Shown here: positions 4,955 to 62,038 of the stretch, piece after piece
Numbering within the stretch: position 1 is the first letter of the stretch
How the letters are laid out: the number at the start of each line of letters is the position of its first letter
Assembly: GCA_963835415.1 (NCBI GenBank)
Contig: CAWIFZ010000005.1
Location: 2,937 to 66,936 of the forward strand
Reading direction: 5' to 3'
Length of the DNA: 64,000 bases
Source of the DNA: an uncultured Actinomycetes bacterium
GTDB taxonomy: Bacteria; Actinomycetota; UBA4738; HRBIN12
Translations under genes and position numbers: made by a program
The notes under the pieces: model-generated
Seen by the model: the letters and a program-made list of their open reading frames with translations, nothing else
Database searches by the model: none
What the model was told of the DNA's origin: nothing

Positions 4955-4964
4955 CTTCCCTCGC

Positions 4965-6800: not shown

Positions 6801-6856
6801 GGATTTTCGAGCGGAAGTGGCCGGCGCATCGACGCCGGCCACGGAACTGCCGCTGA

Positions 6857-9262: not shown

Positions 9263-9925
9263 ATGAGCGACGCAAAACGACGGACGCGAAAGCGCGGAGG
9301 TTCGCCAACCCGCACCCAGGATCCGGAGGGCACCCGTCAGAATATTCTGGAGATAGCCTCCGAAGAGTTTGCGCTGAATGGCCTGGCGGGGGCGCGCGTC
9401 GACGAGATCGCCGCGCGCACGCGCTCCAGCAAGCGGATGATCTACTACTATTTCGGAGACAAGGACGGCCTCTATCTCAGCGCTTTGGAAAACGCCTATC
9501 GCCAGGTCCGCGAAGGCGAGGCGAAGGTGGACATAGACGGGCTCGGTCCCGTCGACGCGCTGTCGCGGCTGGTCGAATTCACCTTCGATCACCACCACCA
9601 GCACGAAGCGTTCATTCGCATGGTGATGATCGAGAACATTCACCACGGCCAGTTTCTGGAGCGCTCGAAGGTCATTCGCGACCTCAACGTGACGGCGATC
9701 GATCATATTTCGCGGATCTATGCGCGCGGCGTCGAGGATGGTGTATTCCGTCCGGGCCTCGATCCGGTGGAGGTTCACTGGCAGATCAGCGCCTTGTGCT
9801 TCTTCAATGTCTCGAACCGCGCGACGTTCTCGAAAATCTTCGGCCGCGATTTCGGTGCTCCCGATCAGCTCGAGCGGCTGCGCCACAATTGCGTGGAAAC
9901 GATCCTGCGGTTTGTCGCCCGTTGA
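9263..9925 (+). CDS. TetR-family transcriptional regulator
   Basis: N-terminal HTH ILEIASEEFALNGLAGARVDEIAARTRSSKRMIYYYFGDKDGLY. It is divergent from the dehydrogenase/TRAP genes. Confidence 0.8.
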   Translation: MSDAKRRTRKRGGSPTRTQDPEGTRQNILEIASEEFALNGLAGARVDEIAARTRSSKRMIYYYFGDKDGLYLSALENAYRQVREGEAKVDIDGLGPVDALSRLVEFTFDHHHQHEAFIRMVMIENIHHGQFLERSKVIRDLNVTAIDHISRIYARGVEDGVFRPGLDPVEVHWQISALCFFNVSNRATFSKIFGRDFGAPDQLERLRHNCVETILRFVAR

Positions 9926-10038
9926 TGCCTGCGCGCCGATGATCACCGACCGCCTCGCGTCTTGCTTGTAAGGCGAGCGCACGCGATCTACAATGGACGG
10001 ACTAGTTCGTTTGTTGTCGATCAGGTGCCAAGCGATCC

Positions 10039-11435
10039 ATGAAGACGTCCATCGCGACCGTGTCGATTGCCGGAGAGCTGCCCGGAATTGGCGGCCATCG
10101 CGGCGGCCGGCTTCCACGGCGTCGAGATCTTCGAGAACGATTTTCTGGCGTTCGACGGGTCGCCCCGCGATGTCGGAGCAATGGCGCGCGAGGCGGGTCT
10201 GGCGATCACGCTGTTTCAGCCGTTCCGCGACTTCGAGGGCCTGCCCGAGCCGCAGCGGAGCCGCGCCTTCGACCGCGCCGAGCGGAAATTCGATGTCATG
10301 CAGGAGCTGGGCACCGACCTGATGCTGGTCTGCTCCTCGGTCTCGCCGGTTGCCCTTGGCGGCATAGACCGTGCAGCGGCCGATCTTCATGAACTGGGCG
10401 AGCGCGCGGCAAGACGGGGACTGCGCGTCGGCTACGAGGCCCTCGCCTGGGGCCGCTATGTCAGCGATCATCGCGACGCGTGGGAAATCGTCCGCCGCGC
10501 CGGCCACGCCAGCATCGGGCTGATCCTCGATTTGTTCATACGCTGGCCCGCAAGATCGATGTCGACTCGATCCGCAGCATTCCGAAGGACAGGATATTCA
10601 TCGTCCAGGTCGCCGACGCGCCGCTCATCGACATGGACCTGCTCTACTGGAGCCGCCACTTCCGCAACATGCCCGGCGAAGGCGATTTGCCAGTTCGCGA
10701 ATTCATGCAGGCGGTCGCGGCGACCGGTTATGACGGCTATTTGTCGCTCGAGATCTTCAACGATCAGTTTCGCGGCGGCTCCCCCAGGGCGATCTCCGTC
10801 GACGGTCATCGCTCGTTGAAATGGCTGATGGACCAGGTCAGCCGCAGCGAACCGGCGATTGCCGCCGCAAGCCCGCGCATCCCCGACCGCGTCGATGTCG
10901 TTGAAGGCGTCGAATTCATCGAGTTCTCCGCAAACGAAGCCGGCGCCGGCGAAATTGCCGGGTTGCTGCAAAGCCTGGGCTTTCGCAAGGTCGGGCGGCA
11001 TGTTTCGAAGGATGTGACGCTCTATCGGCAGGGCGGTATCAAAATTCTCGTCAACACCGAGCGCCAGGGCTTCGCGCATTCGTCATTCGTCGTCCACGGC
11101 ACGTCGATCTACGCGATCGGTCTCAAGGTCGCCGATGCTCGCTCGACGATGGAGCGGGCGCTGGCGCTCGACGCGGAACCCTTCGCGCAGACGGTACCGC
11201 CCGGCCAGTTGGTCATTCCGGCAGTTCGCGGCGTTGGCGGCAGCGTGATCTATTTTCTCGAACTCCCGCGTTTTGACTCTCTCGCAGATGTCTGGGATCG
11301 CGAGTTCCGGCCGGTCGACGCGGACGGTGGTGGCTCGGGCGTCGGCCTGACCCGCATCGGCGATCACATCGGCCAGACGATGAACCAGGGCGAGATGCCG
11401 TCATGGCTGCTGTTCTACACGGCGATATTCAACAC
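10039..11435 (+). pseudogene. 3-dehydroshikimate dehydratase (TIM-barrel plus HPPD-like domain; QuiC/QsuB type), two frameshifts and 3'-truncated at the segment junction
   Basis: MKTSIATVSIAGELP (frame of 10039) continues as ELAAIAAAGFHGVEIFENDF... (frame of 10067), then FHTLARKIDVDSIRSIPKDRIFIVQVADAP...VEFIEFSANEAGAGEIAGLLQSLGF... (frame of 10480). The homology-like sequence stops at ...WLLFYTAIFNT at about 11436. Confidence 0.7.
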
Positions 11436-41842: not shown

Positions 41843-43059
41843 TGTTCCGCTCGCTGCGATCCCGGCTGGCGCTGTCCCATGCACTCGTCCTCACGGTGAT
41901 CCTCGTCGGGCTCGGGTTCTGGTTGCAGCTGCTGTTGGCGGGAACGCTCGACCGCAGCGCCACGGACGATCTGCTCGCGCAGGCGAACGGTCAGGTGAAG
42001 AGCATCGAGGAGTCGGGCGAGGTGCAGCCACCGGTCGACTCGGATACGCCGTCGGAGGCCTCGGTGCAGCTGGCGATCTACGCCTCCCCCGACGACCGCC
42101 TGGTGGGCGAACCCACCGAAACGCCACGGTGGTTGCGGCACTACCCAGCGACGGTGACGGATCTGTCGGTCGCGGGCGAGCACGTCCGAGTCATCACGGT
42201 TCCCGCGAAGGTCGAGGGAAACGTGGTCGCGTGGGTCGCGGCCGGACGCTCGCTGGAGTCCGAGGACCGACTGCTCCAACAGGTGCGGCTGCTCCTCATC
42301 GTCGGAGGCGCGATCGCCGTCGTGGCCAGCCTGTTCGCCGGCTGGTGGCTCGCCGGGCGCGCGGTCCGGCCCGTGGAGCGCGCCTATCGCGCGCAGGCGG
42401 GGTTCGCCGCCGATGCGTCGCACGAACTCCGCACGCCGCTCGCGTTCATCCGTTCAGGGGTGGAGGTCCTCTCCGAAGGAGACCCGGAACTCGGGGCCGA
42501 GGTCCTCGCGGATGTCGACTACCTGACCGGCATGACGCAGCGGCTGCTCATGATGGCGCGTGCCGAACGCGGCACGATGTCGCTCGAGCGGGCACCGATC
42601 GACGTCGGCGCGATCTGCCGTTCGGCGGGACGGCGCAGCGAGGTCGCACACGCCGATCGGCTCACGATCTCCGGGCCCGCACCCTTGACGGCGATCGGCG
42701 ACGGCGTCGGGCTCGAGGCAGCACTGGACGCGGTGCTCGAGAACGTGCACGAGCACGGCGGCGGCACGGCCGAGCTCGTCTGGGCGGCGGCGGGCGACGA
42801 CGCCGTGGTCTCGGTGGTCGACCACGGCCCGGGTCTGCCGGCCGATGCCGCCGAGCAGGCGTTCGAACGGTTCTTCCGGGCCGATCCCTCGCGGGCGCGC
42901 GATACGGGCGGCGCCGGACTGGGACTGTCGCTGGCTCGCACGCTCATCCAGGCACAAGGCGGCCGGATATGGCTCGAGTCGACGCCGGGAGGCGGGCTCA
43001 CCGCGCGTGTCGCCCTTCCCTTGTCACGCCCGCGAGGCGCGAGTTCAACCTCCGGCTGA
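41842..43059 (+). CDS. Sensor histidine kinase (two TM, HAMP-like, HisKA, HATPase)
   Basis: The ATG overlaps the regulator stop. H-box ASHELRTPLAF and G-boxes DHGPGLP, GGAGLGLSL. Confidence 0.85.
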   Translation: MFRSLRSRLALSHALVLTVILVGLGFWLQLLLAGTLDRSATDDLLAQANGQVKSIEESGEVQPPVDSDTPSEASVQLAIYASPDDRLVGEPTETPRWLRHYPATVTDLSVAGEHVRVITVPAKVEGNVVAWVAAGRSLESEDRLLQQVRLLLIVGGAIAVVASLFAGWWLAGRAVRPVERAYRAQAGFAADASHELRTPLAFIRSGVEVLSEGDPELGAEVLADVDYLTGMTQRLLMMARAERGTMSLERAPIDVGAICRSAGRRSEVAHADRLTISGPAPLTAIGDGVGLEAALDAVLENVHEHGGGTAELVWAAAGDDAVVSVVDHGPGLPADAAEQAFERFFRADPSRARDTGGAGLGLSLARTLIQAQGGRIWLESTPGGGLTARVALPLSRPRGASSTSG

Positions 43060-45772
43060 ACGGCTCGCGAACGGCGTCGTCGGGGGCGACGTCCGGACGC
43101 GCACACGGACGTCGACCACCTTCACACCGGACGGAAGGACCATCACGGGGTTGCAGTCCATCTCGGCGATCTCGGGATGCGCGTCGGCGAGCGCGCCCAC
43201 CCGGAGGATCGTCTGCACCAGGGCACCCACGTCGGCCTTCGGTGCGCCCCGGAACCCGTCCAGCAAGGGGAACGTGGCCAGCGACCGGACCATCTCGTCC
43301 GCATCCACGTCGGTGATGGGCGCGACGCGCACGGCCACATCCCGCTGGAGCTCCACCGTGACGCCGCCGCCCCCGCACGCGACGACCGGGCCGAACACCG
43401 GGTCCGCGACCACGCCGACCAGCATCTCGACGGCATCCTCGATCCGTTCCTGCAGCGTGAACCCGTCGAGCCGCTCTCCGGCGGCCTCAACACGCGTACG
43501 CATGCTTCGGGCTTCCTCGAGCACGTCGCCGGGCCGCACGCCGATCCGCACGGCGCCGGACTCCGTCTTGTGCAACGGGCCGATCCCCTTCAGGACGATC
43601 GGCCCGTCGAACGACGTGGCTGCCTCTGACGCCTCCTCGGCCGTCCGAACGCTCACCGTGCGCGCCAGCGGGATGCCGTAGCACGCGAGCAGTCGCTCGG
43701 CGTCTTCCGTCGGGAGCCACTCGTCTCCACGCGCGAGCGCGGCCGCGATCAACGCGGCCGCCTCCCCCGGCTGCGTGTCGTCGAACGACGGCACGAGCCC
43801 CTCGGCGCGCGACCGCCACATGCCGTACCGCACCGCGCGCGCAAGCGCGATGGCAGCCTGCTCGGGATAGCGATAGGAGGGGATCCGGCTGCCGGGCGCA
43901 CGCAGCACGTCGGGGAGACCGCGCGCGGACATGAAGCACGACAGGATGGGGATGCGGCCGTCGACCTCGGCGACCGCGCGGACGAGCTGGCGAGCGACCT
44001 CGGGGGCCGCCGCCTCCAGGGGCGGGATGTAGAGCACGATCAGCGCGTCGATCCCTGGATCGCCCGCGACCACACGGATCGCTCGGCCGTAGTCCTCCGC
44101 CGACGCGGAGGCGATCATGTCGACGGGGTTCGAGACCGACGACGCCACCGGGAGGAACGACCGCAGCTCGTGCACCGTGCCGGCTCCCAGCTCCGTCACG
44201 GCGAGGCCGTTCGCCTCGCACGTGTCCGCGCAGAGGATGCCCAGCCCGCCGGCGTTCGTCACGATGGCGACGCGGTTGCCGGCCGGGACCGGCTGGTTGG
44301 CCAGGAGCGTCGCCACGTCGAACAGCTGCTCGAGCGTGTCGGTCCGGATCACGCCGCTCTGCCGGAAGAGCGCGTCCACGGTGGAGTCCGAGGCGGCCAG
44401 CAGCGCCCCGGTGTGCGACATCGCCGCGCGACTCCCGGCTGCGCTGCGCCCGCTCTTCACGGCGACGATCGGCGTGTGGGCGCCCAGCCGGCGGGCGAGC
44501 CTGGCGAACCGGCGCGGGTTCCCGAACGACTCGAGGTACATCAACACGACATCGGTGTTCGGGTCGTCGTCCCAATAGCTCAGGAGATCGTTGCCGGAGA
44601 TGTCTGCCTTGTTCCCGATGGAGACGAACGTCGACAGACCCAAGCCGAGCTCCGCGGCTTGCCCCATGACCGCGATCCCGAGCGCGCCGCTCTGCGAGAG
44701 GAACCCGACGCGTCCCGCAGGGGGCCACGTCGTCGCGAACGTGCCGTTGAGTTGCACGGCGGGGTCGGTGTTCACCACCCCCATGCAGTTCGGACCGATC
44801 AGTCGCATGCCGGATGCGCGACACACGTCGAGGAGCTCGCGTTGCAACGCGGCGCCGTCCGAGCCGGTTTCGGCGAACCCGGCGGAGATCACGACGAGCC
44901 CGCGCACACCCTTCTCGCCGCACTCCCGGGCCACCGCGATGACATGCGCCGCCGGCACCGCGACGAACGCCACGTCGACGTGACCGGGGATGTCGAGCAC
45001 GCTCGGGAACGCCGCGATGCCCTGCACGACGGCCGACTTCGGGTTGACGGCGTGCACCACGCCCGCGAACGGAGGGTCCAGCAGGTTGTGGAGGAGCCGT
45101 CCGCCGATCGACGCTGCGTCGCGCGACGCCCCGATCACCGCGACGGACGTGGGCTGGAGGATCGCACGGACGGCGTTCGCCGCCGCGATCCGCTCCCGAT
45201 CCTCGTACGCGGCGAGCGCCTCGGCGGTGAGCGCCGTCGGGAACTCGACGTCCACGGTCCCCGGCGTCGCGCGCAGATGAACGGGGAAGCCGCTGCGCCG
45301 GAAGACGTCGATCATCCGGTGGTTCTCCGGGAGCACGTGTGCATGGAACGTCGAGATGCCGGCATCGTCGGCGGCGTCGGCCAGATGCGCGACCAGGATC
45401 GAGCCGAGGCCACGCCCCTGCAAGGCGTCGGCGACGCTGACGCTGACCTCCGCCCGTGACGGATCTCCTTCGCGGATGTATTGCGCGCCGCCGATCACCT
45501 CACCCGCTCCAGCTTCGGCCACGGCCAGCAGCGTGAGGTGGTTCCGGTAATCGACCTCGGTCGAGCGCCGCGCGATATCACTGACGTCGACCGCCACACC
45601 GCCGAACCGGAAGTAGCGGGACTCGTCCGACAGGCCGATCAGATAGTCCTCGATCCGTTCGCGATCCTCGCGCCGTGCCGGCCGGATGCGCACGGTGGCG
45701 CCGTCTCGCAGGACGACGTCGACCTCCCGGTGCGCCGGATACGGGGCCGAAGCGTCGTCCATGGCGCCTAAT
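43045..45772 (-). CDS. GNAT acetyltransferase fused to ADP-forming acyl-CoA synthetase-like domains (Pat-type protein acetyltransferase architecture)
   Basis: From ATG 45772: a GNAT region (ADALQGRGLGSIL), then CoA-binding (VAVIGASRDAASIGG), ligase-CoA and ATP-grasp-like regions. ORF 43045..46248 is extended upstream by run-on. Confidence 0.8.
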
Positions 45773-45776
45773 CGGC

Positions 45777-48497
45777 CTAGCGCTCGAGAAGCTCGCGCAG
45801 CACCATCCGCAGGAGGCCACCGCCGGCGAAGTAGTCGACCTCCGCGGCGCCGTCGATCCGCACGATCGCGCTGAACGCGCGTCGTGCACCGTCGTCGCTC
45901 ACCGCCTCGACCGCGACCTGCATCCCGGGCGACACGCCGCCCTCCAGACCGCGGACCGAGATCGTCTCCCGTCCGCTGAGGCCGAGCGACGCCGCGGACT
46001 CCCCCGCCGCGAACTGGAGCGGCAGGACGCCCATCCCGACGAGGTTGCTGCGATGGATCCGCTCGTAGCTCTCGGCGATCACGAACCGAACACCGAGGAG
46101 CGAGGGGCCCTTCGCCGCCCAGTCGCGGCTGGAGCCGCTGCCGTACTCCTTGCCTGCCAGGACCGCGAGCGGCACACCCGCCTCCCGGTAGCGGCCCGCG
46201 GCGTCGAACACCGTCATGAGGTCGCCGTCGGGGAGATACGTGGTCCACGGGCCCTCGGTCCCTGGCGCCATCTCGTTGCGGAGCCGGATGTTCGCGAACG
46301 TCCCGCGCATCATGACCTCGTGGTTACCGCGGCGTGCGCCGTAGCTGTTGAACTCCGCCGGCGACACCCCGCGCGCCTTGAGGAACTCCCCCGCGGGCGA
46401 GTCCGCCTTGATCGATCCGGCCGGCGAGATGTGGTCGGTGGTGATGGAGTCGCCGACCTTGACCAGGACGCGCGCGCCCTCGATGTTCCCGCCGGCGACG
46501 GCATCGTCGAGATCGTCGAAGAACGGCGGCTCTCGCACGTATGTCGAATCTGGATCCCATTCGTACATCGGACCTGAGGGCGACGGCAGTGCCGCCCAGT
46601 TCTCGTCGCCGTCCCAGACGCGTCCGTATTCGTGCTCGAACTGTTGAGGCTCGAGCGACGTCCGGATGGCCTGCGCCACGTCGTCGGCCGAGGGCCAGAT
46701 GTCGCTGAGGAATACCGGACCATCCGCGCCTCGGCCGAGCGGCTCGGTCGTGAGGTCGATCTGGACGCTGCCGGCCAGGGCGTAGGCGACACAGAGCGGC
46801 GGCGAGGCGAGGTAGCTCGCCCTCACCTGCGGATGGATCCTCCCCTCGAAGTTCCGGTTCCCGGAGAGGACGGCGACGACGTTCAGGTCCCCCTCGTCGA
46901 CGGCGCTCGCGACGTTCTCCGGCAACGGTCCGGAGTTCCCGATGCACGTCGTGCACCCGTAGCCGACCAGCGAGAACCCGAGCTTGTCGAGGTACGGCGT
47001 CAGGCCCGCGCGATCGAGGTAGTCGGTCACGACTCGCGACCCGGGTGCGAGGCTGGTCTTCACCCATGGCTTCGTCTCCAGCCCCGCTTCGACGGCCTTC
47101 TTGGCAAGCAGACCCGCGGCGAGCATGACGGAGGGGTTGGACGTGTTCGTGCAGCTGGTGATCGCCGCGATCACGACCGAGCCGTGCCGGACGGTGGCCC
47201 CGTTCACGTCGATCGGCGTCTCGGTACCCGGCTCGATCGTCGCGTCCACATCGACGGCCACGTCGGGGTTCCCGCCCTCCGATTCGAACCGTCCGACCTC
47301 GGTCAGCTTCGGGTCCGGCTCGGAACCGTCGCGGAACGCGGCGACGAACGAGTCCCAGACATCGGGCAGCGCCACCCGATCCTGCGGGCGTTTCGGTCCG
47401 GCGAGCGATGGGACGATCCCCGATAGATCCAGGTCGAGCACCTCGGTGAACACCGGGTCCGGATCGCCATCGGAGCGGAACAGCCCCTGCTCCTTCGTGT
47501 AGCGCTCCACCACGTCGACGAGTCGGTCACGGCCCGTGAACGCCAGATACCGGAGCGTCTCTTCGTCGACGGGGAAGTATGCGGCGGTGGCCCCGTACTC
47601 GGGACACATGTTGGACATGGTCGCTCGGTCGGCGGTGGAAAGCGTGGACAGCCCGTCGCCGAAGAACTCGACGAATCGCCCGACGACGCCGTGCGCGCGA
47701 AGCATCTCTGTGAGCGTGAGCACCAGGTCGGTCGCGGTGGTGCCGGGAGGGAGGCCCCCCGTCATCCGCACGCCGACCATGAGCGGCTGTGGCATGAACG
47801 CGGGCTGGCCGAGCATGGCGGCCTCCGCCTCGATGCCGCCGACGCCCCAGCCGAGCACGCCCAAGCCGTTGATCATGGTCGTGTGTGAGTCCGTCCCGAC
47901 GAGCGTGTCCGGGAACGCGACCCCATCGCGGACGGTCACCACCTGGCCGAGGTGCTCCAGGTTCACCTGGTGACAGATGCCCGCGCCCGGAGGGACCACG
48001 CGGAGCCCGTCGAAGGCCTGCTGCGCCCATCGCAGGAGCGCATAGCGTTCGGAGTTGCGGCGGTACTCCCACTCGATGTTGGCCGCGTACGCGCCTTCGC
48101 TCCGGAACAGGTCGACCTGTACCGAGTGATCGATGATCAGATCTGCGGGAACGAGCGGATCGACCGTTGACGGGTCGCCGCCGTTCCGGGCCATGGCCGA
48201 GCGCATCGCGGCCAGGTCCACCACCGCCGGGACGCCCGTCAGGTCCTGCATCAGGACGCGGCCTGGCATGAACGCGATGTTCTGAGCCGGTCCCGGCCAC
48301 GCGGCCAGCGCCCGCACGTCGTCGTCGGACACGTCGCGCGTGCCGGCGCGGCGGAGCAGGTTCTCCAGCAGGATCTTGACGGTCTTGGGGAGGCGCGCGA
48401 TGTCGCCGTGGTCGCTCAGATGGTCCAGTCGGTAGATGTCGACGGCGCCGTCGGCGGTCTCCAACGAACCGCGGGCGCCGGTCAGCTCGGAGGTCAT
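45777..48497 (-). CDS. acnA: Aconitate hydratase A
   Basis: 906-aa intact ORF with IDHSVQVD, GTDSHTT, CTNTSNP and CTTCIGNSG motifs. Confidence 0.95.
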   Translation of the reverse strand: MTSELTGARGSLETADGAVDIYRLDHLSDHGDIARLPKTVKILLENLLRRAGTRDVSDDDVRALAAWPGPAQNIAFMPGRVLMQDLTGVPAVVDLAAMRSAMARNGGDPSTVDPLVPADLIIDHSVQVDLFRSEGAYAANIEWEYRRNSERYALLRWAQQAFDGLRVVPPGAGICHQVNLEHLGQVVTVRDGVAFPDTLVGTDSHTTMINGLGVLGWGVGGIEAEAAMLGQPAFMPQPLMVGVRMTGGLPPGTTATDLVLTLTEMLRAHGVVGRFVEFFGDGLSTLSTADRATMSNMCPEYGATAAYFPVDEETLRYLAFTGRDRLVDVVERYTKEQGLFRSDGDPDPVFTEVLDLDLSGIVPSLAGPKRPQDRVALPDVWDSFVAAFRDGSEPDPKLTEVGRFESEGGNPDVAVDVDATIEPGTETPIDVNGATVRHGSVVIAAITSCTNTSNPSVMLAAGLLAKKAVEAGLETKPWVKTSLAPGSRVVTDYLDRAGLTPYLDKLGFSLVGYGCTTCIGNSGPLPENVASAVDEGDLNVVAVLSGNRNFEGRIHPQVRASYLASPPLCVAYALAGSVQIDLTTEPLGRGADGPVFLSDIWPSADDVAQAIRTSLEPQQFEHEYGRVWDGDENWAALPSPSGPMYEWDPDSTYVREPPFFDDLDDAVAGGNIEGARVLVKVGDSITTDHISPAGSIKADSPAGEFLKARGVSPAEFNSYGARRGNHEVMMRGTFANIRLRNEMAPGTEGPWTTYLPDGDLMTVFDAAGRYREAGVPLAVLAGKEYGSGSSRDWAAKGPSLLGVRFVIAESYERIHRSNLVGMGVLPLQFAAGESAASLGLSGRETISVRGLEGGVSPGMQVAVEAVSDDGARRAFSAIVRIDGAAEVDYFAGGGLLRMVLRELLER

Positions 48498-52084: not shown

Positions 52085-52146
52085 GGACGCGCTCGAACTC
52101 GGCGCCGCTCCGAGAAGCGTCCGAGGGCGCGGCTACCATAGGCGCC

Positions 52147-53100
52147 ATGGCGCGGATGTTCGTGGAGGGCTGGGCTCCCGAGTACGGCGCACCCTTCGAT
52201 CCGGACGAACAGATGGCCCCGGCCGAGGGGACCATCGACCCCACCGTCGAGCTGACCGACTGGGAGCCGCTCGAGGGTGTCGACGACGGCATCGACCAGA
52301 TCGGGTTCGTGGACGGGGTGCGACGGATCGACGCCCGGCTGCTGCTGGACGATCCCGTCTCCGGTCCCACCCCCGGGATCTGCGGGACGTTCGCCGTCGG
52401 CGCCACGCGCTGGCATCGGCATGAGCGATGGTCAGAGATCACGGACGTGCGAGTGGAGCGGTGGGCGGTGGTGGCCGGCGGACGCGCCGACGAGCTCCCC
52501 GCCGTGGAGCTTGACCCTCCGTACCGCACCGCGACCACGCCGTCGGACGATCCCTCGCATCTGATCGGCGAGCTCCACACGCGGATGCGTCGCGCAGAGG
52601 GTGAGCTCGCGTCCGCGCTGGCCGCCGACGCGTTCGTGGTCGCGGACGGTCCGCTCAACAAGCCGCTCGCGCCGCTCGCGGTCGTCGGTTACATCAAGAG
52701 CCATCGCGTGACGTACCTGCCGCCCGAGCAGAACGTCGTGATCGCCGAGCTCGCGCCGGGACAGCGGACGCCGCTGTTCACGATCGCGGCCGACCGGCCC
52801 GATGTATGCCGGTACTCCTGGTACGTGCGTCTCGCGATGTTGCAGGGCGGCCACTCGTGGACCGGGGTCGTCCGCTGCGAGGCGTCCGGCAAGCTCCCGA
52901 AGGACGACGTGAGGACGATCGCCGATCGCACGGCGGCGATCCTGCCGATCGTGGGCTCCGAGCCCCACATCGATCCGCGGGCGCCGCAGAACCTGGTGCC
53001 GATCGGCGCGCTCGAGCGGGAACTGCGTCACCGGATGGGCGACCCGGGATTGGTCTACCGCGCGCTGCGGTACGCCGTCAGCGAACGGGAGGCGTCGTGA
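52147..53100 (+). CDS. nurA: NurA-domain nuclease (DNA end-resection nuclease family)
   Basis: IGFVDGVRRID, FVVADGPL, VVGYIKSH and YSWYVRL segments match the order of the NurA RNase-H-like motifs. The stop overlaps the following HerA-like gene (GTGA). Confidence 0.6.
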   Translation: MARMFVEGWAPEYGAPFDPDEQMAPAEGTIDPTVELTDWEPLEGVDDGIDQIGFVDGVRRIDARLLLDDPVSGPTPGICGTFAVGATRWHRHERWSEITDVRVERWAVVAGGRADELPAVELDPPYRTATTPSDDPSHLIGELHTRMRRAEGELASALAADAFVVADGPLNKPLAPLAVVGYIKSHRVTYLPPEQNVVIAELAPGQRTPLFTIAADRPDVCRYSWYVRLAMLQGGHSWTGVVRCEASGKLPKDDVRTIADRTAAILPIVGSEPHIDPRAPQNLVPIGALERELRHRMGDPGLVYRALRYAVSEREAS

Positions 53101-54833
53101 CCGGCGACGGTGTCGGCCGGGTCCTCGGCTCGGAGCATTCCTCGACGAGCGAGTTCCGCGTGGTGCTCGACGACGACGAGTACCTCCAGCTCGACGACCT
53201 CATCGTCGTCCGGACCCAAGTCCCGAAGGCGGGCGAGGTCGCGACGTACGGGGTCGTGACCGAGGCGGAGTCGGTCTACGAAGGCGCGACGTACGAGTCG
53301 GACACGCACCGCGTGGCCGAGCTCGGCATCATGCCCGCGTCGAAGGTGCGCTCCGCCCGGGTCGCGGTCACGCGTGTGGACCCGGAGATCTGGGTCTCCC
53401 CGGACCCCGGTGAGATCGTGCAACGCGCCACCGGAGACGAGCGCGCGAAAGCCCTGTACCTCGACGAGATGGGTCGCCCGCTGCCGATCGGGATCGGCCG
53501 CGACGGCGAGCCCGTCGCCGTCGACCTCGACTTCTTCGACGGACGCAAAGGCGGCCACATGTCGATCAGCGGCATCAGCGGGGTCGCGACCAAGACATCG
53601 TTCGCGCTGTTCTTCCTCCGGATGCTGACCGGGCATCCAGGCGTGGTCGGCGAGGGCGCCTCCAACCTCCGCGTGCTGGTCTTCAACGTGAAGGGCGAGG
53701 ACCTGCTCTGGCTCGACAAGCCGAACCGCTTCTTCGACGACGAGGCGGCCGCGGGGTGGGCCAAGCTCGGCGTCGAGCCCGGGCCGTTCCCGTCGGTGCG
53801 GTTCTGGGCGCCGGCCCGCAAGCGCTCCGGTGACGTCGTCGTCCCCGACACCGGAGGACGACACGAAGGGGTCGACGTCTTCAGCTGGACGCCGCGCGAG
53901 TTCGTCGACGAGGACTGCCTGCAGTTCCTGTTCACCGACGCGAACGACGCGAAGAACCAGATCCCGTTCGTCCGGGAACGCGTCCAGGCACAGTTGAAGC
54001 GGTTCGCCGTCGACGTGGTGGGGATGCCCGGCGCGGTCGTGCTCCGCGATCCACGCGACGCACCGGACGGCAATTGGCGCGGCCAGCAGGTCCAGGCGCA
54101 GGCCGGCGAACGGATCGTCACCGACCTGCTCACGCTCGTCGATGCGCTGGGCGAGTTCCTGGAGCCGGAGGACGGCTCCGAGCCGGACTGGGCGTGGAGC
54201 GGCCGGGTGATGGGGGGCACGGTCTCCGCGTTCATGCGGCGGTTGCACGCGGGCGCCGCGCGGATGGGACAGCTCGTCAGGGCCGGCGAGAGCCGCCGCA
54301 TCGATCGCTCGAAGGCGAGCGTGACCGTCGTCGCGATCCAGTCGCTGCACGACCAGGCGCAGCGGTTCGTGGTCGGCGCGCTGCTGAACGAGGCCTTCCG
54401 CGAGAAGGACGAGTCCGGGCAGCGCCTCCCGCTCTCGGTCGTCGTGCTTGACGAACTCAACAAGTACGCACCGCGTGAGGGAACCAGCCCGTTGAAGGAC
54501 ATGCTCGTCGACATCGCGCAGCGCGGTCGCTCGCTGGGCATCCTGCTCGTCGGGGCACAGCAGACCGCATCACGCGTGGCGTCCGAGGTGTTGGAGAACG
54601 CCGCGATCCGCGTGAGCGGCCGTTTGGACGCCGCCGAGGCCGAACGCGCCGAGTACGGGTGGATGCTCCCATCCACGCGGGCTCGCGCGCGGTTGCTCAA
54701 GCCCGGCACCATGGTCATCTCGCAGCCGGCGATCCCCGTGCCGCTCGTCGTCACGTTCCCGTTCCCCCCGTGGGCCACCAGGAAGGAGGAGGTGGCGACG
54801 GACGCCGACGGTGATCCGTTCGCGGGCCTGTGA
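53097..54833 (+). CDS. herA: HerA-like FtsK/HerA-superfamily ATPase (HAS-barrel plus P-loop domain)
   Basis: N-terminal barrel-like region (GRVLGSEHSSTSEFRVVLDDDEYLQLDDLIVV...YGVVTE), P-loop-like GISGVATKTS and Walker B LSVVVLDELNKY. Confidence 0.65.
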   Translation: MTGDGVGRVLGSEHSSTSEFRVVLDDDEYLQLDDLIVVRTQVPKAGEVATYGVVTEAESVYEGATYESDTHRVAELGIMPASKVRSARVAVTRVDPEIWVSPDPGEIVQRATGDERAKALYLDEMGRPLPIGIGRDGEPVAVDLDFFDGRKGGHMSISGISGVATKTSFALFFLRMLTGHPGVVGEGASNLRVLVFNVKGEDLLWLDKPNRFFDDEAAAGWAKLGVEPGPFPSVRFWAPARKRSGDVVVPDTGGRHEGVDVFSWTPREFVDEDCLQFLFTDANDAKNQIPFVRERVQAQLKRFAVDVVGMPGAVVLRDPRDAPDGNWRGQQVQAQAGERIVTDLLTLVDALGEFLEPEDGSEPDWAWSGRVMGGTVSAFMRRLHAGAARMGQLVRAGESRRIDRSKASVTVVAIQSLHDQAQRFVVGALLNEAFREKDESGQRLPLSVVVLDELNKYAPREGTSPLKDMLVDIAQRGRSLGILLVGAQQTASRVASEVLENAAIRVSGRLDAAEAERAEYGWMLPSTRARARLLKPGTMVISQPAIPVPLVVTFPFPPWATRKEEVATDADGDPFAGL

Positions 54834-54861
54834 CGCGACCCGCCACGCCCTCCCCCCGGAC

Positions 54862-56031
54862 ATGAAGATCCTCCACACGTCGGACTGGCACATCGGCAAA
54901 CGACTGGGCCGGCACGACCGCATGGACGAATTCGTCGAGGTCCTCGCCGAGGTCGAGCGCATCGCCGACGAGCGCGAGGTGGACCTCGTGATCGTCTCCG
55001 GTGACGTGTGGGACCGACCCGCGCCTGCGACGGATGCGCTCGCGCTCGGTCTCCGAACGCTGATGCGGCTGGCCACGCACCGGCCCGTGGTCGCCGTCGC
55101 CGGCAACCACGACTCACCGGACTTCTTCGAGGCGCTCGCGCCGCTCCTGCGTCCGCTCGGCGTGCATCTGATCGGCAACGTGAAGCGCCCCGACGAGGGC
55201 GGCCTACTCGGACCCGATGACCTGGGCGGGCTGCCCGTCGTCGTCGCCGGCTTCCCGTTCCTCCGGGAAGGCAAGGTCGTCGATTTCATGAAGGACGCCG
55301 GCGAGTGGTACCGCGGGTACGCGGATCGCGTCGCCGCGATCACCGGCCGATACAACGACGCACTCGTCGAACGCGCCGGCGCCGACCTGGTGCCGATCCT
55401 GGTCGCGCATTTCCTGGTGAACGGCGTGACGATGGGGCGGGATGCCCCGCGCGGGGAACGCGAGCTCCACATGGGCGATGCCTACACGGCCACGCCGCAG
55501 GCGATCCCCGCCGGACCGCAGTACGTGGCGATGGGCCACATCCACGCGCCCCAGAAGGTTCCGGGCGCGCCCGTCCCCGCGGAATACGCCGGCTCGCTCC
55601 TCGCGCTCGACTTCGGGGAGGCCGGAGAGCAGAAGCGGGTCGTCGTGGTGGACGCCGAACCGGGACGGCTGGCCGTCGCGGAGAGCATCCCGCTGCAGAG
55701 CGGCCGTCCCCTCGTCCGCGTGCAGGACACCTGGGACGCGATCGAGGCGCGGGCCGACGAGCTCGCCGGCGTGTTCCTCGACCTCACCGTGAAGACGAGC
55801 GGCACCGACATGACGCTCGCCGAGCGCGCATATGGGGCCTTCCCGTTCCTCGTGCGGGTCCGCGCACAGCGACCAGTGGGGATCGATCGGGATCGGCTGG
55901 CCAAGGATCACCGCTCGTGGGAGGAGCTGTACGCCGAGTACTACCGGCGGGAACATGACGAGGACGCTCCGGACGACCTGCTGGCCCTCTTCCGCGATGT
56001 GCTCGAGGAGGCGGCCGATGCGACCGCTTGA
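54862..56031 (+). CDS. sbcD: Exonuclease SbcD (Mre11 family)
   Basis: ILHTSDWHIG, SGDVWD, AGNHD and MGHIH phosphoesterase motifs. Confidence 0.9.
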   Translation: MKILHTSDWHIGKRLGRHDRMDEFVEVLAEVERIADEREVDLVIVSGDVWDRPAPATDALALGLRTLMRLATHRPVVAVAGNHDSPDFFEALAPLLRPLGVHLIGNVKRPDEGGLLGPDDLGGLPVVVAGFPFLREGKVVDFMKDAGEWYRGYADRVAAITGRYNDALVERAGADLVPILVAHFLVNGVTMGRDAPRGERELHMGDAYTATPQAIPAGPQYVAMGHIHAPQKVPGAPVPAEYAGSLLALDFGEAGEQKRVVVVDAEPGRLAVAESIPLQSGRPLVRVQDTWDAIEARADELAGVFLDLTVKTSGTDMTLAERAYGAFPFLVRVRAQRPVGIDRDRLAKDHRSWEELYAEYYRREHDEDAPDDLLALFRDVLEEAADATA

Positions 56032-58555
56032 GCTGACGATCGAGGGGTTCCGCTCCTACCGCGAGCGGGTCACGTTCGATTGGCGCGGTCGGCGGCTCGT
56101 CGGGATCGTCGGTCCGATCGGCTCGGGGAAGTCATCGATCCTGGACGCGGTGTCCTTCGCGCTGTACGGGAAGACCCCCCAGGTGGAGGGCGCCACGAAG
56201 TCGCTGATCCACCAGCTGGCCGACCAGTCGCACGTCGAGCTCCGGTTCCAGGTGGATGGGCAGGTGTGGCGGGCCGTGCGATCGCTCCGACGCAAGGGGG
56301 CGTCAGGACATCAGCTCGAGCTGCTGGCCGACGACTCGCCCGACGCCCAGGTCCTGGAGGTGGTGACGCTCGAGGGCGCGATCAACGAGCGGGTCGAACA
56401 GATCATCGGCATGGACTTCAAGACGTTCTGCCGCTCCGTCCTGCTGGCGCAGAACCGATTCTCGGAGTTCCTCAAGGCGACACCCGCTCAGCGAGATGCG
56501 GTGCTGAAGGGCGTCTTCGGGTTCGAACGGTTGGACGACGCGCTCCGCGTGGCGAAGACGCGCGCGGAGCGGATCGACCTGGAGCTTGCCTCACTTGGCA
56601 AAGAGCGCGAGCGGATCGTGGAGGCGCGCGAGCACCTCGATGAGGCACGGGCGACGGCCGAACGGTCGCGCGAACGGCTGCATGCATTGGAATCGGCCGG
56701 TCCGGAGATCGAGCGCCTGGAGAAGGAGCGGGATGCCGCCGAAGGGGACGCGGCGTCGGCGGTCGCCCGCATGGCGACGCTGACCGAGATCGCGGGGACC
56801 CTTCCGGACGAAACCGACATCGCCTCTCCGATCGCGGCCTCGCGGGACGCCGGCGCCCGGGTCGCCGCGGCGGAGACCGTCGTTCGCGAGGCGGACGAGG
56901 CCCGTGCGGCATGCGAGGCCGAACTCGCCCGAGTCGCCTCGCTCCACGGGAACCGTGAGCAGTTCCGATCGTTCGCGAACCTGGTGGAGACCCACGAACG
57001 CCACGTCGCTGAGGTCGAGAGGACCCAGACCGCGGTCGACGGTGCGCGGGCGGAGCTCGACGAGGCACGCGCGGTCGAAGGAGCCCGTATCGCCGCCGCG
57101 TCCGCCGCCGCCGAGGCACTCAGCCTCGCGAACGAGGCGCTGACGGCAGCGGCGACGGATGTCGGCGCCGCACGGACCACGTTGATGGCCGCCACGCACG
57201 CGGAGATGGCGCATGAGCTCCGCGGCGCCCTCGTGGCGGGAGAACCGTGCCCGGTGTGCGCGCAAGAGGTCCACCAGGTGCCGAAGGCCGGAGCGGCACC
57301 GAAGGTCAAGGCGGCCGAGAGCGCGCTCGCCAAGGCGGAGAAGACCGAGGCGAAGGCGAGGACCGAGCGGGATCGGTGCGCCGGCACCGACGCATCAGCT
57401 CGAACATCGGTCGACGAAGCGGGCGCCGGCATCGGCCGGGGCGAAGCAGCGCTGGCCCAGGCGCTGGACACGGCGGCCGCCGCCACCGCCTCGCTCACCG
57501 CCACCAAGGATCAGCTCGTCGGATGGCTCGGCGAGGAGGGCGACCCACGGTCGTTGTTCGAGGCGAGAGAGGCCGAGCTCACCGCTGCCGAGCGAGCCGT
57601 GGAGGCCGGGCACCGCGCGGTTGAGGCGGCGCGAGCCGGTCTCGACGAGGCGGCCCGGCTCGCCGAAGGCGCGAGCGCCGCGATCGCCACGCTGGCGAAC
57701 CGGCTGTCGGGGGTGTGGGGCCGCCTCGAGGAGGACCGCGACGTCGCCGTGGAGCCGGAGGCGATCGAGTCGGCGTACGCGGCGATCCGCGAGGAACTGG
57801 TCACGCGCCACGAGCGTGCGACGGCCGAACGAGACGTCGCGACCGCGCGCGTGGACGATGCCGCGCGCGCGCGCCTCGAGGTCCTCCGGAGCGTGGAGCT
57901 CGGGCCCAACGACGATTTCCGCCGCGCGCTGGCCGAGGCCGGCGTGGTGCATGGCGCCGCCGGCGCACGGGTGACGGAGCTCGAGGAACGGATCGCGTCC
58001 GCGAGCGACCTGGAACGGACGATCCTCGACCTCGAGGCGCGCCGGGACATCGCGAAGCGTCTCGCCGGCGACCTCCAACCCTCGCGGTTCCTCGGATTCC
58101 TCTTAGAAGAGGAGCGCGCCGAGCTGGCGGAGCTGGGAAGCGATCACTTCTCGGAGCTGACGGACGGCGGCTATCGCTTCACCGACGACGACCGGTTCGA
58201 CATCGTGGACCTGAACGCCGCGAACACGAAGCGCAAGGCCGACAGTCTTTCCGGCGGCGAGACGTTCCTCGCCTCGCTGGCGCTCGCGCTCGCGCTGGCC
58301 GAGATGGTCGCGCGCGGGGGCGGACGGCTGGACTCCTTCTTCTTGGACGAAGGGTTCGGGAGCCTGGATCCGGAGCATCTGGACCTCGCGATGGACGGGA
58401 TCGGCCGCCTGGTTTCCGAGAACGAGCGCCGACTGGTCGTCCTCGTCAGCCATGTGGCGGAGATGCGCGACGCGATCGAGGATCTGGTCGTGCTCGACAA
58501 GGACGACGTCACCGGCGACACCATCGTCCGCTCCGGCGCGGGACCCGCTGCGTAG
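56018..58555 (+). CDS. sbcC: SbcC/Rad50-family ATPase with CxxC zinc hook
   Basis: Walker [10 protein letters not shown], long coiled coil, hook GEPCPVCAQ, signature [15 protein letters not shown], Walker B FFLDEGF. It overlaps sbcD by 14 nt. Confidence 0.9.
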
Positions 58556-58726
58556 CGGCGCTTCCGAACCGAAGCGGGCATCCGGCGGTGTTGGTTCGGG
58601 AACTACCTGGGACGGGGTACGTCCAAAGACCTACCTGATTCCGACCATATCCCTCCCGTGGCCGACTACGGGTTGCCTGGGAGCTGGCCGATACAACCTG
58701 AGAGGCCCGATCGAACAAGGGGAACG

Positions 58727-61700
58727 ATGGCCGCCCAGAAGAGCATCTACCGGATCGCCAGAACGCTGCTGCTCGCCCTGGCAGCGCTCCTCGCGGTGGG
58801 CGCGGTCGGGTCGATGTTCATGGGTTCGCGGGCGGTCAGCCAGGCGAAGACCGCCGCGGTCGATCAGGCGCGAACGATCGTCGAGAACTCGCTGCCCATC
58901 ACCCTCGCACCCAGCGACGTCGTCTCCGCCGCGACCGATTCGAAGGCGGATCTCATCACCAGCAAGATCACGCCGGTCCTGTTGGATCCGAGTGCGTGGG
59001 ACGACGTCGCGATCTGGTCGCTGGACGGTCAGATCGTCTACGCGACGGATCGCTCGCTCATCGGGCAGCGGCCCGACGAGGCGCGCAGCAGCGTGCGCGA
59101 CGCGACCGAGAACGGCACGGTCTCATCCGAGCAGCGCGATGGCATGTTCTCCGTGCTCATCCCCCTGCGGTTCCGGAGCGACGGACCGATCAGCGCCGCC
59201 ATCCAGCTCGCCCGTCCCGACGACCTGATCGCCGCGGCCGGCCGGCCATGGCGCTACAACGCGATCCTCATGACGCTCGGCCTCATCGTCACGCTGTTCG
59301 TCCTCTACCGGGTCATGCGGCTCAGCGCGTCGGCATCGGCGAACGCCAGTTTCACGCCCGCGATCAGGGACCGCGTCGCGCCGGGGCTCCCGCCGCAGGT
59401 CGCGCCGCAGCGCCCGCTGGAGCTGGCGTCTCCGGGGCTCCGCGAGGAGGCCGAGGCCCGCAGGAAGGCACAAGAGCGCGCCACCTCCGCAGAGGAGCGG
59501 CTGACCGTCATCCAGGAGCAATACCGCAAGACGCTCGAAGAGCTCCACATCACGCAGCGGATGCTCCAAGAACGCCCGGCGTCGGCGACGACGACCGGTC
59601 CCGACCCCGAGGTCGAGGCGCGGCTGTTGAAGGCCGAGGGTCAGACGCGACTGCTCGAGGGACAGCTGGCGGCGATGAGCACGGAGCGGGACAAGCTCGC
59701 GCGCCACATCGCGGAACAGGCGAAAGCCGCGGAAGTGGCGAAGGCCAAGGGCGATCCGGAAGCCGATCGCAAGACGCGCCAGATCGAGCAGGAAGCGATC
59801 GGGCTCCGGGCGGAGCTCGAGGGCGCGCAGACCGAGCTGTCGCTGACCCGTCGCGAGCTCGACGCGTTGAAGCCGGACGCAGAGCGTGCCCAGGAGCTGC
59901 AGCAGGACCTGGACGCGGCCCACGTCGAGGCGCTCCACGCCCGCGAGGCGGCGGAGTCCGCGCAGTCCGAGCTCGCGCACGCGACGAGCGAGCTGGTCGA
60001 CGTCCGCAACGAGCTCCGCGTCTTGCGGACCGAGGAGCAGAAGGCGAGCATCTTCGGCGAGGAACTGCGCGTCGCGCGCGCCGAGATCGACAGCCTGAAG
60101 GCATCGCACGCCGCCGACCTGGTGGAGCGCGAGGCCGAACTCGAGGCGCGCGTCCGCACGACCCGTGAGGAGTTCCAGACCCAGCTCGAGCAGAACGAGG
60201 CGGAGACGCAGCGCCTGCTCGCCGAGCGCGAGGAAGCGCTCACGAAGGAAGCCGCGTCCAGCGTGGCCGAGCTGCGCCGCGCCGCCGACGAGCGCGAGGC
60301 CGAGCTGCAGGCGCAGCTCGCCGAGCGTGAGGCCGAGCTCCAGGCGCAGCTCGCCGAGCGTGAGGCGGAGCTGCAGCACCGGCTCGCCGAGCGTGAGGCG
60401 ACGCTGCAGGAACAGATCTCCGAGCAGGCAGAGCAGCTCGAACACAAGCTCACCCAGCGAGAGGCGGAGCTCACCGCACGCATCGCGGAGATGGAGGCGG
60501 GATCGATCGTGACGAAGGGCGAGCTCGACGCCTCGAACGCCGCGCTCGCGACGCTGAAGGGCGAGCTCCAAGCGGCCCGCGACGAGATCGAGGCCGTGAC
60601 GCACGACGAGTCGTCGCGCGACGAGCAGGTGGCCAAGGCGAACGAGGAGCTCGTCCGGTCGCGCACCGAGATCGAGACGTTGCAGCACGAGCTCGGCGAG
60701 ATCCAGCGAGGCCGCGACGCGTTCGAGGCCGAGCTGCAGCGTGCCACGCGGGAGCGCGAGGCGCTCCAAGCCGAGTTGGCCGCCGCCAGCGCCGAGGTCC
60801 AGACGGAGCTCGCACGCGGCGTCGAACTGTCCACGAAGGCCGAGGCCACCGAAGAGGCGCTCCGCGGCGCACGCGAGGCCGCTATGGCCACCGAGCAGGA
60901 GCTGGAACGGATCCGCTCCGAGCAGGAGCGTCTGGTCTCGGCGTTCGAGGACGCCAAGGCCCGTCACGCCGAAGAGCTCACCGTCGCGAAGGCAGCCGCC
61001 GAGGCCAGCCCCGACCTCGAGGAGATCCTCCGCACCAGCCAGGAGCGACTGGCCAGCCAGACCGAGAAGCTGATCGAGGTCGAGGAGCGCGCGCACTCCG
61101 CCGAGCGCCAGTTCGCCGACGCGGTCGTCCGGTTGGATGAGGTCGAGGCCGAGCTCCGCCATCTCCAGATGGAGAAGGCGCTGCACGATCTGCAGACGGA
61201 ACGCCCCTCGGCCGACGCCAGCGCCGAGGACACCACGACGATCCCGAACGCTCCCTTGGAGGACCGCCGTTCATCCACGCCGTTCACCAAGGAGCTGGCG
61301 CTCGACGCGAAGAAGTCGCTGTCGCACATCTTGGGGCTCACGCAGATCATGAAGTACAAGAAGGACTCGAAGGACCAGACACAGCTGATCAAGCAGCTGA
61401 CCGCTGCCGCCCGGCGCCTGGACCACACCGTCGCCGACCTGGCCGAGGCCGACTCGCTCGCGCACGGCGTCGTGGAACTGACGATCAAGCGGACCGACCT
61501 GGATGCCCTGTTGAAGCGCGTCGTGGACGAGTCCGGCATCGGTACCGACCATGACGTTCGCATCGACAGCCAGCCGCTCGTCGTGGGGGTCGACTCGCTC
61601 CGCGTCGAGCAGGTCGTCGCCGGCTTGCTCCGCTTCTGCGGGGACCGCACGGCGACGGGCAAGGCCATCACGGTCCGGCTCGGGAGCATGGATGGGGGCG

Positions 61701-62038
61701 CCTTGATCTCCGTCGAGGATCCCGAGCCGTCCAGCGACGGTTCGCTCAGCCCCGTCATCACCCGCTTCGTCGAGATGCAGGGCGGCTGGACGAAGATCGA
61801 GAGCCGTGACGGGGGCGGCTCTGCCTTCCGCGTCTTCCTGCCCGACGGCGGCCCGTCCGGCGAGACGCCGGTTGCACCCCCGACCGACGAGGTCGGAGGC
61901 GAGGAAGAGCCGGCCGCACCCGGCACGCTGCAGATCGTGGTGGCGGAGCCCGGCGAGCAGGACGGCCCCGACGCGTGGAGCGGCTCGGAGGAGCAGCTGT
62001 TCGTGCAGGAGCTGCACCGGCTGCACGCCGAGGACTGA
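58727..62038 (+). CDS. Membrane sensor protein with ~600-aa coiled coil and degenerate C-terminal histidine-kinase module
   Basis: AAGGGGAACG RBS. Two TM helices flank a ~170-aa extracytoplasmic domain, followed by a very long Glu/Ala/Arg/Leu-rich heptad region. The H-box-like segment is KKSLSHILGLTQIM. The HATPase-like end lacks the N-box Asn (LLRFCGDRT) and the DxGxG box (VEDPEPS). Confidence 0.7.
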   Translation: MAAQKSIYRIARTLLLALAALLAVGAVGSMFMGSRAVSQAKTAAVDQARTIVENSLPITLAPSDVVSAATDSKADLITSKITPVLLDPSAWDDVAIWSLDGQIVYATDRSLIGQRPDEARSSVRDATENGTVSSEQRDGMFSVLIPLRFRSDGPISAAIQLARPDDLIAAAGRPWRYNAILMTLGLIVTLFVLYRVMRLSASASANASFTPAIRDRVAPGLPPQVAPQRPLELASPGLREEAEARRKAQERATSAEERLTVIQEQYRKTLEELHITQRMLQERPASATTTGPDPEVEARLLKAEGQTRLLEGQLAAMSTERDKLARHIAEQAKAAEVAKAKGDPEADRKTRQIEQEAIGLRAELEGAQTELSLTRRELDALKPDAERAQELQQDLDAAHVEALHAREAAESAQSELAHATSELVDVRNELRVLRTEEQKASIFGEELRVARAEIDSLKASHAADLVEREAELEARVRTTREEFQTQLEQNEAETQRLLAEREEALTKEAASSVAELRRAADEREAELQAQLAEREAELQAQLAEREAELQHRLAEREATLQEQISEQAEQLEHKLTQREAELTARIAEMEAGSIVTKGELDASNAALATLKGELQAARDEIEAVTHDESSRDEQVAKANEELVRSRTEIETLQHELGEIQRGRDAFEAELQRATREREALQAELAAASAEVQTELARGVELSTKAEATEEALRGAREAAMATEQELERIRSEQERLVSAFEDAKARHAEELTVAKAAAEASPDLEEILRTSQERLASQTEKLIEVEERAHSAERQFADAVVRLDEVEAELRHLQMEKALHDLQTERPSADASAEDTTTIPNAPLEDRRSSTPFTKELALDAKKSLSHILGLTQIMKYKKDSKDQTQLIKQLTAAARRLDHTVADLAEADSLAHGVVELTIKRTDLDALLKRVVDESGIGTDHDVRIDSQPLVVGVDSLRVEQVVAGLLRFCGDRTATGKAITVRLGSMDGGALISVEDPEPSSDGSLSPVITRFVEMQGGWTKIESRDGGGSAFRVFLPDGGPSGETPVAPPTDEVGGEEEPAAPGTLQIVVAEPGEQDGPDAWSGSEEQLFVQELHRLHAED
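60290..60415 (+). repeat. 33-bp (11-codon) tandem repeat, about 3.7 copies, inside the coiled-coil gene
   Basis: Protein reads EREAELQAQLA EREAELQAQLA EREAELQHRLA EREATLQEQ. Nucleotide copies are near-identical, with phase 60291/60324/60357/60390. Confidence 0.75.

Follow-up and report, generated by a model that had tools for sequence, protein, structure and literature searches.

The 64,000-nt stretch of DNA analysed here (the window; contig CAWIFZ010000005.1, forward-strand positions 2,937 to 66,936) comes from an uncultured soil actinobacterium and carries a chromosomal cluster of four genes, nurA, herA, sbcD and sbcC. We read the cluster as a damage-inducible operon for the processing of double-strand ends toward recombinational repair, and put the probability of this reading at roughly 0.6. 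The evidence that carries it is the structure of the genes, an orthology in which the experimentally tested residues are intact, the linkage and co-variation of the four genes across lineages, and the conservation of a promoter motif upstream of nurA.

At the nurA/herA junction, which reads ...GGGAGGCGTCGTGACC, the TGA stop of nurA and the GTG start of herA share GTGA, giving a 4-nt overlap that is seen again in many orthologous loci, and the herA start is preceded by a GGGAGG ribosome-binding site. A gap of 28 nt (54834-54861) separates herA from sbcD, while sbcD and sbcC overlap by 14 nt, with GAGGAGG preceding the sbcC ATG. A first-pass annotation, made by a model from the letters alone, had listed these coordinates and junctions together with a CPVC motif in SbcC and had read the genes as one operon. 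All of these details were reproduced from the list of open reading frames, the translations and the junction sequences, and the operon reading is borne out by the two overlaps, the short gap and the ribosome-binding sites. The genes form a single operon, probably with a leaderless transcript (Table 1). Scans of 51.8-58.8 kb found no sigma-70 promoter and only one antisense terminator-like site, within expectation, and an Rfam search of 50-60 kb returned no match. A hairpin just 3' of the sbcC stop (~58562-58601) was considered as a terminator and set aside, since it folds no better than shuffled sequences (z=-0.67).

Table 1. Genes and putative promoter of the nurA-herA-sbcD-sbcC operon, in window coordinates.
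Feature	Position (strand)	Sequence signals	Product length	Assignment
Promoter	52118..52139 (+)	CGTCCG-N10-TACCAT; GTC '-26 element' plus -10 hexamer		Putative PafBC-type (RecA-independent) DNA-damage promoter
nurA	52147..53100 (+)	ATG start, TGA stop	317 aa	Bacterial-type NurA nuclease, predicted RNase H-like fold
herA	53097..54833 (+)	GTG start	578 aa	Bacterial-type HerA, predicted hexameric translocase ATPase
sbcD	54862..56031 (+)	ATG start, begins MKILHTSDWH	389 aa	Mre11-family nuclease subunit
sbcC	56018..58555 (+)	ATG start	845 aa	Rad50-family ABC ATPase, coiled coil, CPVC zinc hook

The name HerA rests on a solved orthologue from Deinococcus radiodurans (drHerA), because the Pfam models miss this bacterial branch of the family. 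A phmmer search of the PDB aligned residues 3-567 of the window protein with residues 12-602 of drHerA (chain 7f6d_B; E=1.6e-119), a full-length homology that covers the HAS-barrel, RecA-like and helix-bundle regions, and a profile of the HerA family matched drHerA at E=1.5e-207. In Pfam, neither DUF87 (PF01935) nor HAS-barrel (PF09378) matched the window HerA even at E<=10, and NCBIfam gave nothing at that threshold beyond a meaningless EccCa fragment. Matches to the two Pfam models were marginal among 12 relatives as well, with HAS-barrel found in three (best E=0.0023) and DUF87 in one (0.024). Comparison with the mutant data available for the Deinococcus pair (PMC9960219) revealed that the counterparts of drHerA K175/T176, D220, D487/E488, R495, R552 and R96 are all kept, the aligned motifs of the window protein being GISGVATKT at 159, KGED at 199, VVVLDE at 448, APREG and AEAER. 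The catalytic set of the ATPase (Walker A Lys/Thr, the post-beta2 acid and Walker B Asp-Glu) and the translocation arginines R495 and R552 are thus all matched, and the functional residues are invariant in an alignment of 12 distant relatives. The P-loop GISGVATKT is identical in drHerA and is therefore the norm of the family, so that the 'variant ATPase' of the first-pass annotation turns out not to be one. We predict from these alignments that the window HerA is a hexameric double-stranded DNA translocase capped by NurA.

NurA was identified by sequence and by fold. The window protein matched D. radiodurans NurA (drNurA, chain 7f6d_H) by phmmer at E=3.4e-25 and TM1739 at E=9e-10, and a family profile searched against the PDB gave 3.3e-62. 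An AlphaFold2 model built from homologues of the same clade (predicted local distance difference test 80, predicted template modelling (TM) score 0.79) retrieved with Foldseek the NurA of 7F6D (1.8e-18, TM 0.72), two chains of TM1739 (1ZUP; 8e-14 and 9e-13) and the archaeal NurA of S. solfataricus (2YGK; 1.9e-5, TM 0.45); these were its sole matches at E<=0.001. Residues D56 (drD53), K184 (drK201), R278 (drR309), W9 (drW8) and Y13 (drF13), together with E151 and D167, show no variation across 10 distant lineages, and nurA adjoins the gene of its partner through the GTGA overlap. The model and these residues lead us to predict a nuclease of the RNase H-like NurA fold. Neither Pfam (NurA, PF09376) nor NCBIfam matched the protein even at E<=10, and two relatives (loci L088 and L090) have only weak or faint precomputed matches to PF09376. 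In the sequence records of the relatives, HerA is labelled 'ATP-binding protein' and NurA 'hypothetical protein'. The NurA of a Coprothermobacterota locus (L089, 5820-7001) carries eight tandem PGSMTA hexapeptides inserted near the N-terminus.

SbcD and SbcC were recognised directly by the profile libraries. SbcD matched Pfam Metallophos (3.2e-15, 57.5 bits), NCBIfam TIGR00619 sbcd (148.9 bits, above the cut-off of 77.65) and sbcd_Bac (6.6e-49), and its Mre11-type phosphoesterase motifs I-V are complete (DWH, GDVWD, GNHD, GHIH). SbcC scored above the cut-offs of Pfam AAA_23, SMC_N and SbcC_Walker_B and has the form of a split ABC ATPase head with a coiled coil and a central CxxC zinc hook, with Walker A at 32, CPVC at 411-414 in the middle of the protein, LSGGE at 744 and Walker B at 774. 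Its best NCBIfam match, TIGR00618 sbcc (2e-57), reached 194.9 bits, below the curated cut-off of 478.5, and the protein is shorter than the sequences from which that model was built; we therefore file it in the Rad50/SbcC family on the evidence of its domains. Some records call sbcD and sbcC as one product of 1519 aa (L085, 2777-7336), and one 90%-identity cluster (of P0253) mixes members named HerA with members named SbcD. Both are probably artefacts of gene calling and clustering where genes overlap, and not fusions. The family assignments of the first-pass annotation thus hold for all four genes. For NurA and HerA, Pfam and NCBIfam are silent and point to no unrelated family, and the confirmation comes from homology to the 7F6D complex and from the NurA fold; for SbcD and SbcC it comes from Pfam and NCBIfam.

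The herA-mre11-rad50-nurA operon of archaea is classical. In Sulfolobus, Pyrococcus and Thermococcus the same four roles are joined in one operon, with Mre11/Rad50 as end sensor and nuclease and HerA6-NurA2 as translocase and nuclease, but the gene order differs from that of the window. The first-pass annotation had accordingly called the window cluster archaeal-style; its proteins, however, are of bacterial type. The archaeal and window NurA proteins share a fold with no match at the level of sequence, and the family profiles reached neither archaeal NurA nor S. solfataricus HerA by sequence in the PDB. SbcD and SbcC, the partners in the window, score better against the bacterial sbcd/sbcc models than against those of archaeal Mre11/Rad50. 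Published identities between bacterial and archaeal HerA and NurA are below 20%. Judged by these comparisons, the operon is a parallel bacterial module and not a recent import from archaea.

The arrangement is common among relatives. A scan with HerA, taking one genome per species, found 80 loci, all in metagenome-assembled genomes (MAGs) of Actinomycetota and with HerA 74-98% identical; the closest are labelled Actinomycetes or Actinomycetota, and those at 74-78% identity Acidimicrobiia. All four genes stand in the order nurA-herA-sbcD-sbcC in 71 of the 80. Of the remaining nine loci, eight are truncated at a contig end, and the ninth (L001, with 3 kb upstream of herA that lacks nurA) is ambiguous. 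The same order in so many related species is no product of chance. Among more distant carriers, nurA-herA-sbcD-sbcC recurs on a conjugative plasmid of a cyanobacterium (L083), in a Desulfurellaceae MAG, in a Rokubacteria-like contig and in an unassigned contig (L093). The order is herA-sbcD-sbcC-nurA in Streptomyces (on a linear plasmid, on a chromosome and in a Logan contig), Nonomuraea, Microlunatus and Pseudonocardia, and sbcD-sbcC-nurA-herA in a Coprothermobacterota MAG. Three gene orders, spread over at least six phylum-level lineages, therefore preserve the linkage of the four genes; two distant copies of herA (L091, L092) are solitary. Across lineages the pairwise identities of HerA, NurA and SbcD are correlated (r = 0.91-0.96), with r = 0.93 for HerA and NurA and r = 0.96 for HerA and SbcD, the latter falling to 0.71 without the pairs internal to Actinomycetes. 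Co-variation of this kind is in keeping with the genes having been inherited together. The families are large: HerA comprises at least 8,000 clusters at 90% identity, with 368 clusters at 50% identity having E<=1e-30, and NurA more than 4,400 clusters.

Two of the Streptomyces clusters lie near replicon ends (L084, 8001-15568; L082, 6878-14447): on an 8.96-Mb chromosome the distance to the end is ~20 kb, and on a 452-kb linear plasmid it is ~30 kb. Helicases with an 'HA' domain adjoin both clusters, and the plasmid cluster (L082) also adjoins Wadjet-like genes (TIGR02680/TIGR02678/DUF2397).

The four-gene arrangement is not new, as the first-pass annotation had supposed it might be. It runs through this lineage, is widespread in other Actinomycetota and in other phyla, and was remarked upon in 2017 in Oceanithermus profundus (PMC5448004). 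There, in a different phylum (Deinococcus-Thermus), nurA and herA (named hepA) are followed by sbcD and sbcC as in the window. The authors noted the cluster in passing, without an analysis of regulation or distribution, and read it as an archaeal-like architecture for double-strand-break repair; they also recorded that in Deinococcus and Thermus the nurA-herA pair is not linked to sbcCD (PMC5448004). Reviews place NurA-HerA in 'a limited number of bacteria', with probable import from archaea in Deinococcus-Thermus. In the literature searched we found no description of the cluster in Actinomycetota or of its regulation, although an earlier mention in older papers is possible. The neighbourhood survey thus finds the arrangement common, as the first-pass annotation had allowed it might prove to be, while the other half of that proviso, that the arrangement be already characterised by experiment in this lineage, does not hold.

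When the sequences preceding nurA in orthologous loci were aligned, a bipartite element of 22 nt, YGTC-N12-TAnnnT, stood out as conserved; 6-9 nt (mode 7) lie between its -10 hexamer and the start codon. Of 72 orthologous loci, 68 carry the motif, although the sequence around it is not conserved. Elsewhere in the same loci it occurs at a background of 8.8e-6 per nt, from which 0.0005 would be expected per 60-nt promoter window. The consensus derived from the loci, gtGTCgg..gcC...GgTAc.AT, matches that published for promoters of the RecA-independent PafBC pathway (RecA-NDp), tGTCgg(N10)tA(N3)T, likewise of 22 nt, in which PafB reads the GTC triplet at -26 and no -35 element is present (PMC8635444). 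In the window the strictly conserved GTC is correctly placed with respect to the -10 hexamer, and 7 nt separate the hexamer from the nurA ATG, a distance that implies a leaderless transcript. The promoters of the mycobacterial PafBC regulon (PMC8635444, PMC6789036) share with the window copy the GTC '-26 element', the spacing of 12 nt, the TAnnnT hexamer, the lack of a -35 element and a position before DNA-repair genes. No LexA SOS box (GAAC-N4-GTTC) was detected in the 200 nt before nurA at any of the 71 loci searched, nor ahead of herA in five loci from Actinomycetes. Judged by the type of promoter, the operon would be induced by DNA damage and would depend on PafBC. No mention of PafBC with NurA or HerA in this regulatory sense was found in the literature searched.

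Variant loci suggest that the control has been maintained through rearrangement. In six close relatives (L002, 7226-8000, and L003, L005, L008, L009 and L013) an insertion of 0.1-3.4 kb splits nurA from herA, and herA is preceded, at a distance of 50-70 nt, by a second copy of the motif. In most of these loci the second motif is followed by a short leaderless mini-ORF, the first bases of which repeat the start region of nurA; the insert of L002 carries two small minus-strand genes. The split loci look like cases of promoter duplication that would leave the regulation of herA-sbcDC unchanged. In Microlunatus, too, herA is preceded by the motif, and Pseudonocardia has two copies, one before herA and one before sbcD (L087, 7948-7969 and 9968-9989), which suggests two damage-inducible promoters in that cluster.

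The closest characterised system is the NurA-HerA pair of D. radiodurans (PDB 7F6D, 7WRW/7WRX; PMC9960219). The window pair is orthologous to it, with the same P-loop and with all mutationally defined residues kept, and in both organisms nurA precedes herA in one operon. The Deinococcus pair is unlinked to sbcCD, whereas linkage is found in the window and in most sampled lineages, and the promoter of the window, of a type served by an actinobacterial regulator, also sets it apart from D. radiodurans. In vitro, the Deinococcus complex translocates double-stranded DNA and resects the 5' strand (PMC9960219). By extension, the window operon would be switched on by DNA damage, through a single-stranded DNA signal, as part of the actinobacterial RecA-independent response. 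SbcCD would recognise and open blocked or hairpin-capped double-strand ends, and the HerA hexamer, capped by a NurA dimer, would use ATP to thread the duplex end through its channel. In physical cooperation with SbcCD, HerA-NurA would degrade the DNA processively with a preference for the 5' strand, and the product, a 3' tail, may serve RecA-mediated recombinational repair in vivo.

Several observations weigh against this reading. Cells of D. radiodurans or T. thermophilus that lack nurA-herA are not sensitised and can even become more resistant, and the authors call the biological role uncertain (PMC9960219). T. kodakarensis HerA-NurA was found to break down both strands in vitro, and the authors of that work are sceptical of a role in resection (PMC12977600). 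The window copy of the promoter motif is the sole match to YGTC-N12-TAnnnT in 64 kb, a frequency within chance (2.8 in shuffles), and it deviates from the consensus with C for T at position 1 and C for G at position 5. Its weight therefore rests on its position and on conservation across species, and the orthologous loci are themselves related, so that 68 of 72 are not 68 independent events. Moreover, the clusters of Streptomyces and Nonomuraea showed no PafBC-type motif ahead of them, and none of pafBC, recA, adnAB, recBCD and addAB lies within the window.

One alternative is that the operon processes ends without resection in favour of recombination, restraining or redirecting repair by, for example, degrading reversed forks, hairpins or excess linear fragments. 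E. coli SbcCD is classically a nuclease of hairpins and palindromes, and drNurA nicks hairpin loops without ATP. This alternative would fit the improved survival of nurA and herA mutants in Deinococcus and Thermus (PMC9960219), although those phenotypes may not transfer, because nurA-herA has there lost its linkage to sbcCD. A damage-inducible promoter is equally compatible with this alternative, and the data thus do not separate it cleanly from pro-recombination processing; we nevertheless regard a restraining function as unlikely.

A second alternative, somewhat less probable again, is an anti-phage or anti-plasmid system, a role to which the first-pass annotation had linked HerA-family ATPases. 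SbcCD and HerA-NurA would in that case engage incoming linear DNA at its free ends and degrade both strands in the manner of RecBCD. An antiviral role was indeed proposed for the archaeal HerA-NurA by those who found it to degrade both strands (PMC12977600). In the Sir2-HerA and DUF4297-HerA anti-phage systems a paralogue of HerA serves as the motor, and, as in the window, a hexameric ATPase of the HerA family is encoded alongside an effector. In the window, however, the effector is NurA, the partners are SbcCD and the context is housekeeping, and the HerA profile resembles the HerAs of defence systems in the Walker B region alone, with E between 1e-7 and 1e-2 as against 1e-207 for drHerA. PADLOC returned weak matches of SbcC to mad3 and LmuB and of HerA to a HerA model (1.7e-7), but these were partial, covering the P-loop or the SMC head; NurA had none, and no full-length match to a defined system was obtained. 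Related clusters do occur on the cyanobacterial conjugative plasmid (L083) and, beside Wadjet-like genes, on the Streptomyces linear plasmid (L082), and the cluster in L093 adjoins an N6-methylase and a TraG-like gene. In the lineage of the window, by contrast, dozens of species have the operon at the same chromosomal site, flanked by housekeeping genes, with HerA 74-98% identical among them. Defence islands are typically patchy in distribution. Aconitase upstream and acyl-CoA dehydrogenase/thiolase downstream flank the operon in more than 40 of the 80 loci, the rest of the window encodes metabolic and cell-envelope housekeeping functions, and no mobile-element or defence genes were found in it. 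A phage collection held only two distant matches to HerA (25-26% identity), and the promoter is of the DNA-damage type. A defence role therefore has little support in this lineage; for the plasmid-borne relatives it is possible. Together, the promoter type and the housekeeping synteny favour damage-induced end processing over phage defence.

That the four genes are merely adjacent and functionally uncoupled is highly improbable: beyond the split of nurA-herA from sbcCD in Deinococcus and Thermus and the lone herA genes of L091 and L092 nothing speaks for it, and the overlapping reading frames, the linkage kept under different gene orders across phyla and the correlated divergence of the sequences speak against it.

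Of the neighbouring features, the gene downstream of sbcC (58658-62038, + strand) was considered as a fifth member of the operon and rejected, as it follows a 102-nt spacer and is conserved in only part of the clade. Its 1126-aa product has two N-terminal transmembrane helices, a very long coiled coil of AEREAELQ-type repeats and a histidine-kinase-like C-terminus, and is found downstream of sbcC at 30-80% identity in much of the clade and not elsewhere. At the other end of the window, positions 2000-11000 have a lower G+C content (0.58-0.63 against ~0.69) and encode a TRAP (tripartite ATP-independent periplasmic) transporter (DctM/DctP), a shikimate dehydrogenase and a protein with sugar-phosphate-isomerase-like and dioxygenase-like domains; this stretch may be an acquired island for quinate/shikimate utilisation. 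The longest reading frame at 43045-46248 (- strand) fuses a GNAT acetyltransferase to an ADP-forming acyl-CoA synthetase (CoA-binding, Succ_CoA_lig and ATP-grasp domains), an architecture resembling Pat-type protein acetyltransferases. It overlaps the end of the aconitase gene by ~470 nt, and its true start is therefore probably further downstream.

Deinococcus and Thermus are the only bacteria in which the NurA-HerA pair has been studied, and its role in vivo is disputed, the bacterial knock-outs being paradoxical and a study of 2026 questioning the archaeal resection model. The present analysis describes no new kind of system. The operon appears to be an ordinary though little-studied repair module; what makes it of interest is how widely the bacterial four-gene module occurs and that it apparently belongs to the PafBC regulon. 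In contrast to the 'limited number of bacteria' of the literature, bacterial NurA-HerA is a sizeable family that goes unseen by Pfam and NCBIfam, is usually linked to sbcCD and in Actinomycetota stands behind a putative DNA-damage promoter; dedicated NurA and HerA profile models would be worth adding to annotation pipelines. We suggest, tentatively, that linked NurA-HerA-SbcCD is the typical bacterial state, from which Deinococcus and Thermus depart as atypical losers of the linkage, and that in Actinomycetota the module is an unrecognised member of the PafBC regulon and a further pathway of double-strand-break resection beside AdnAB and RecBCD. If this is true, Microlunatus, Pseudonocardia and Streptomyces would offer a tractable cultured setting for the disputed function of HerA-NurA in vivo; the present data recast a vague question as a set of specific experiments in culturable carriers.

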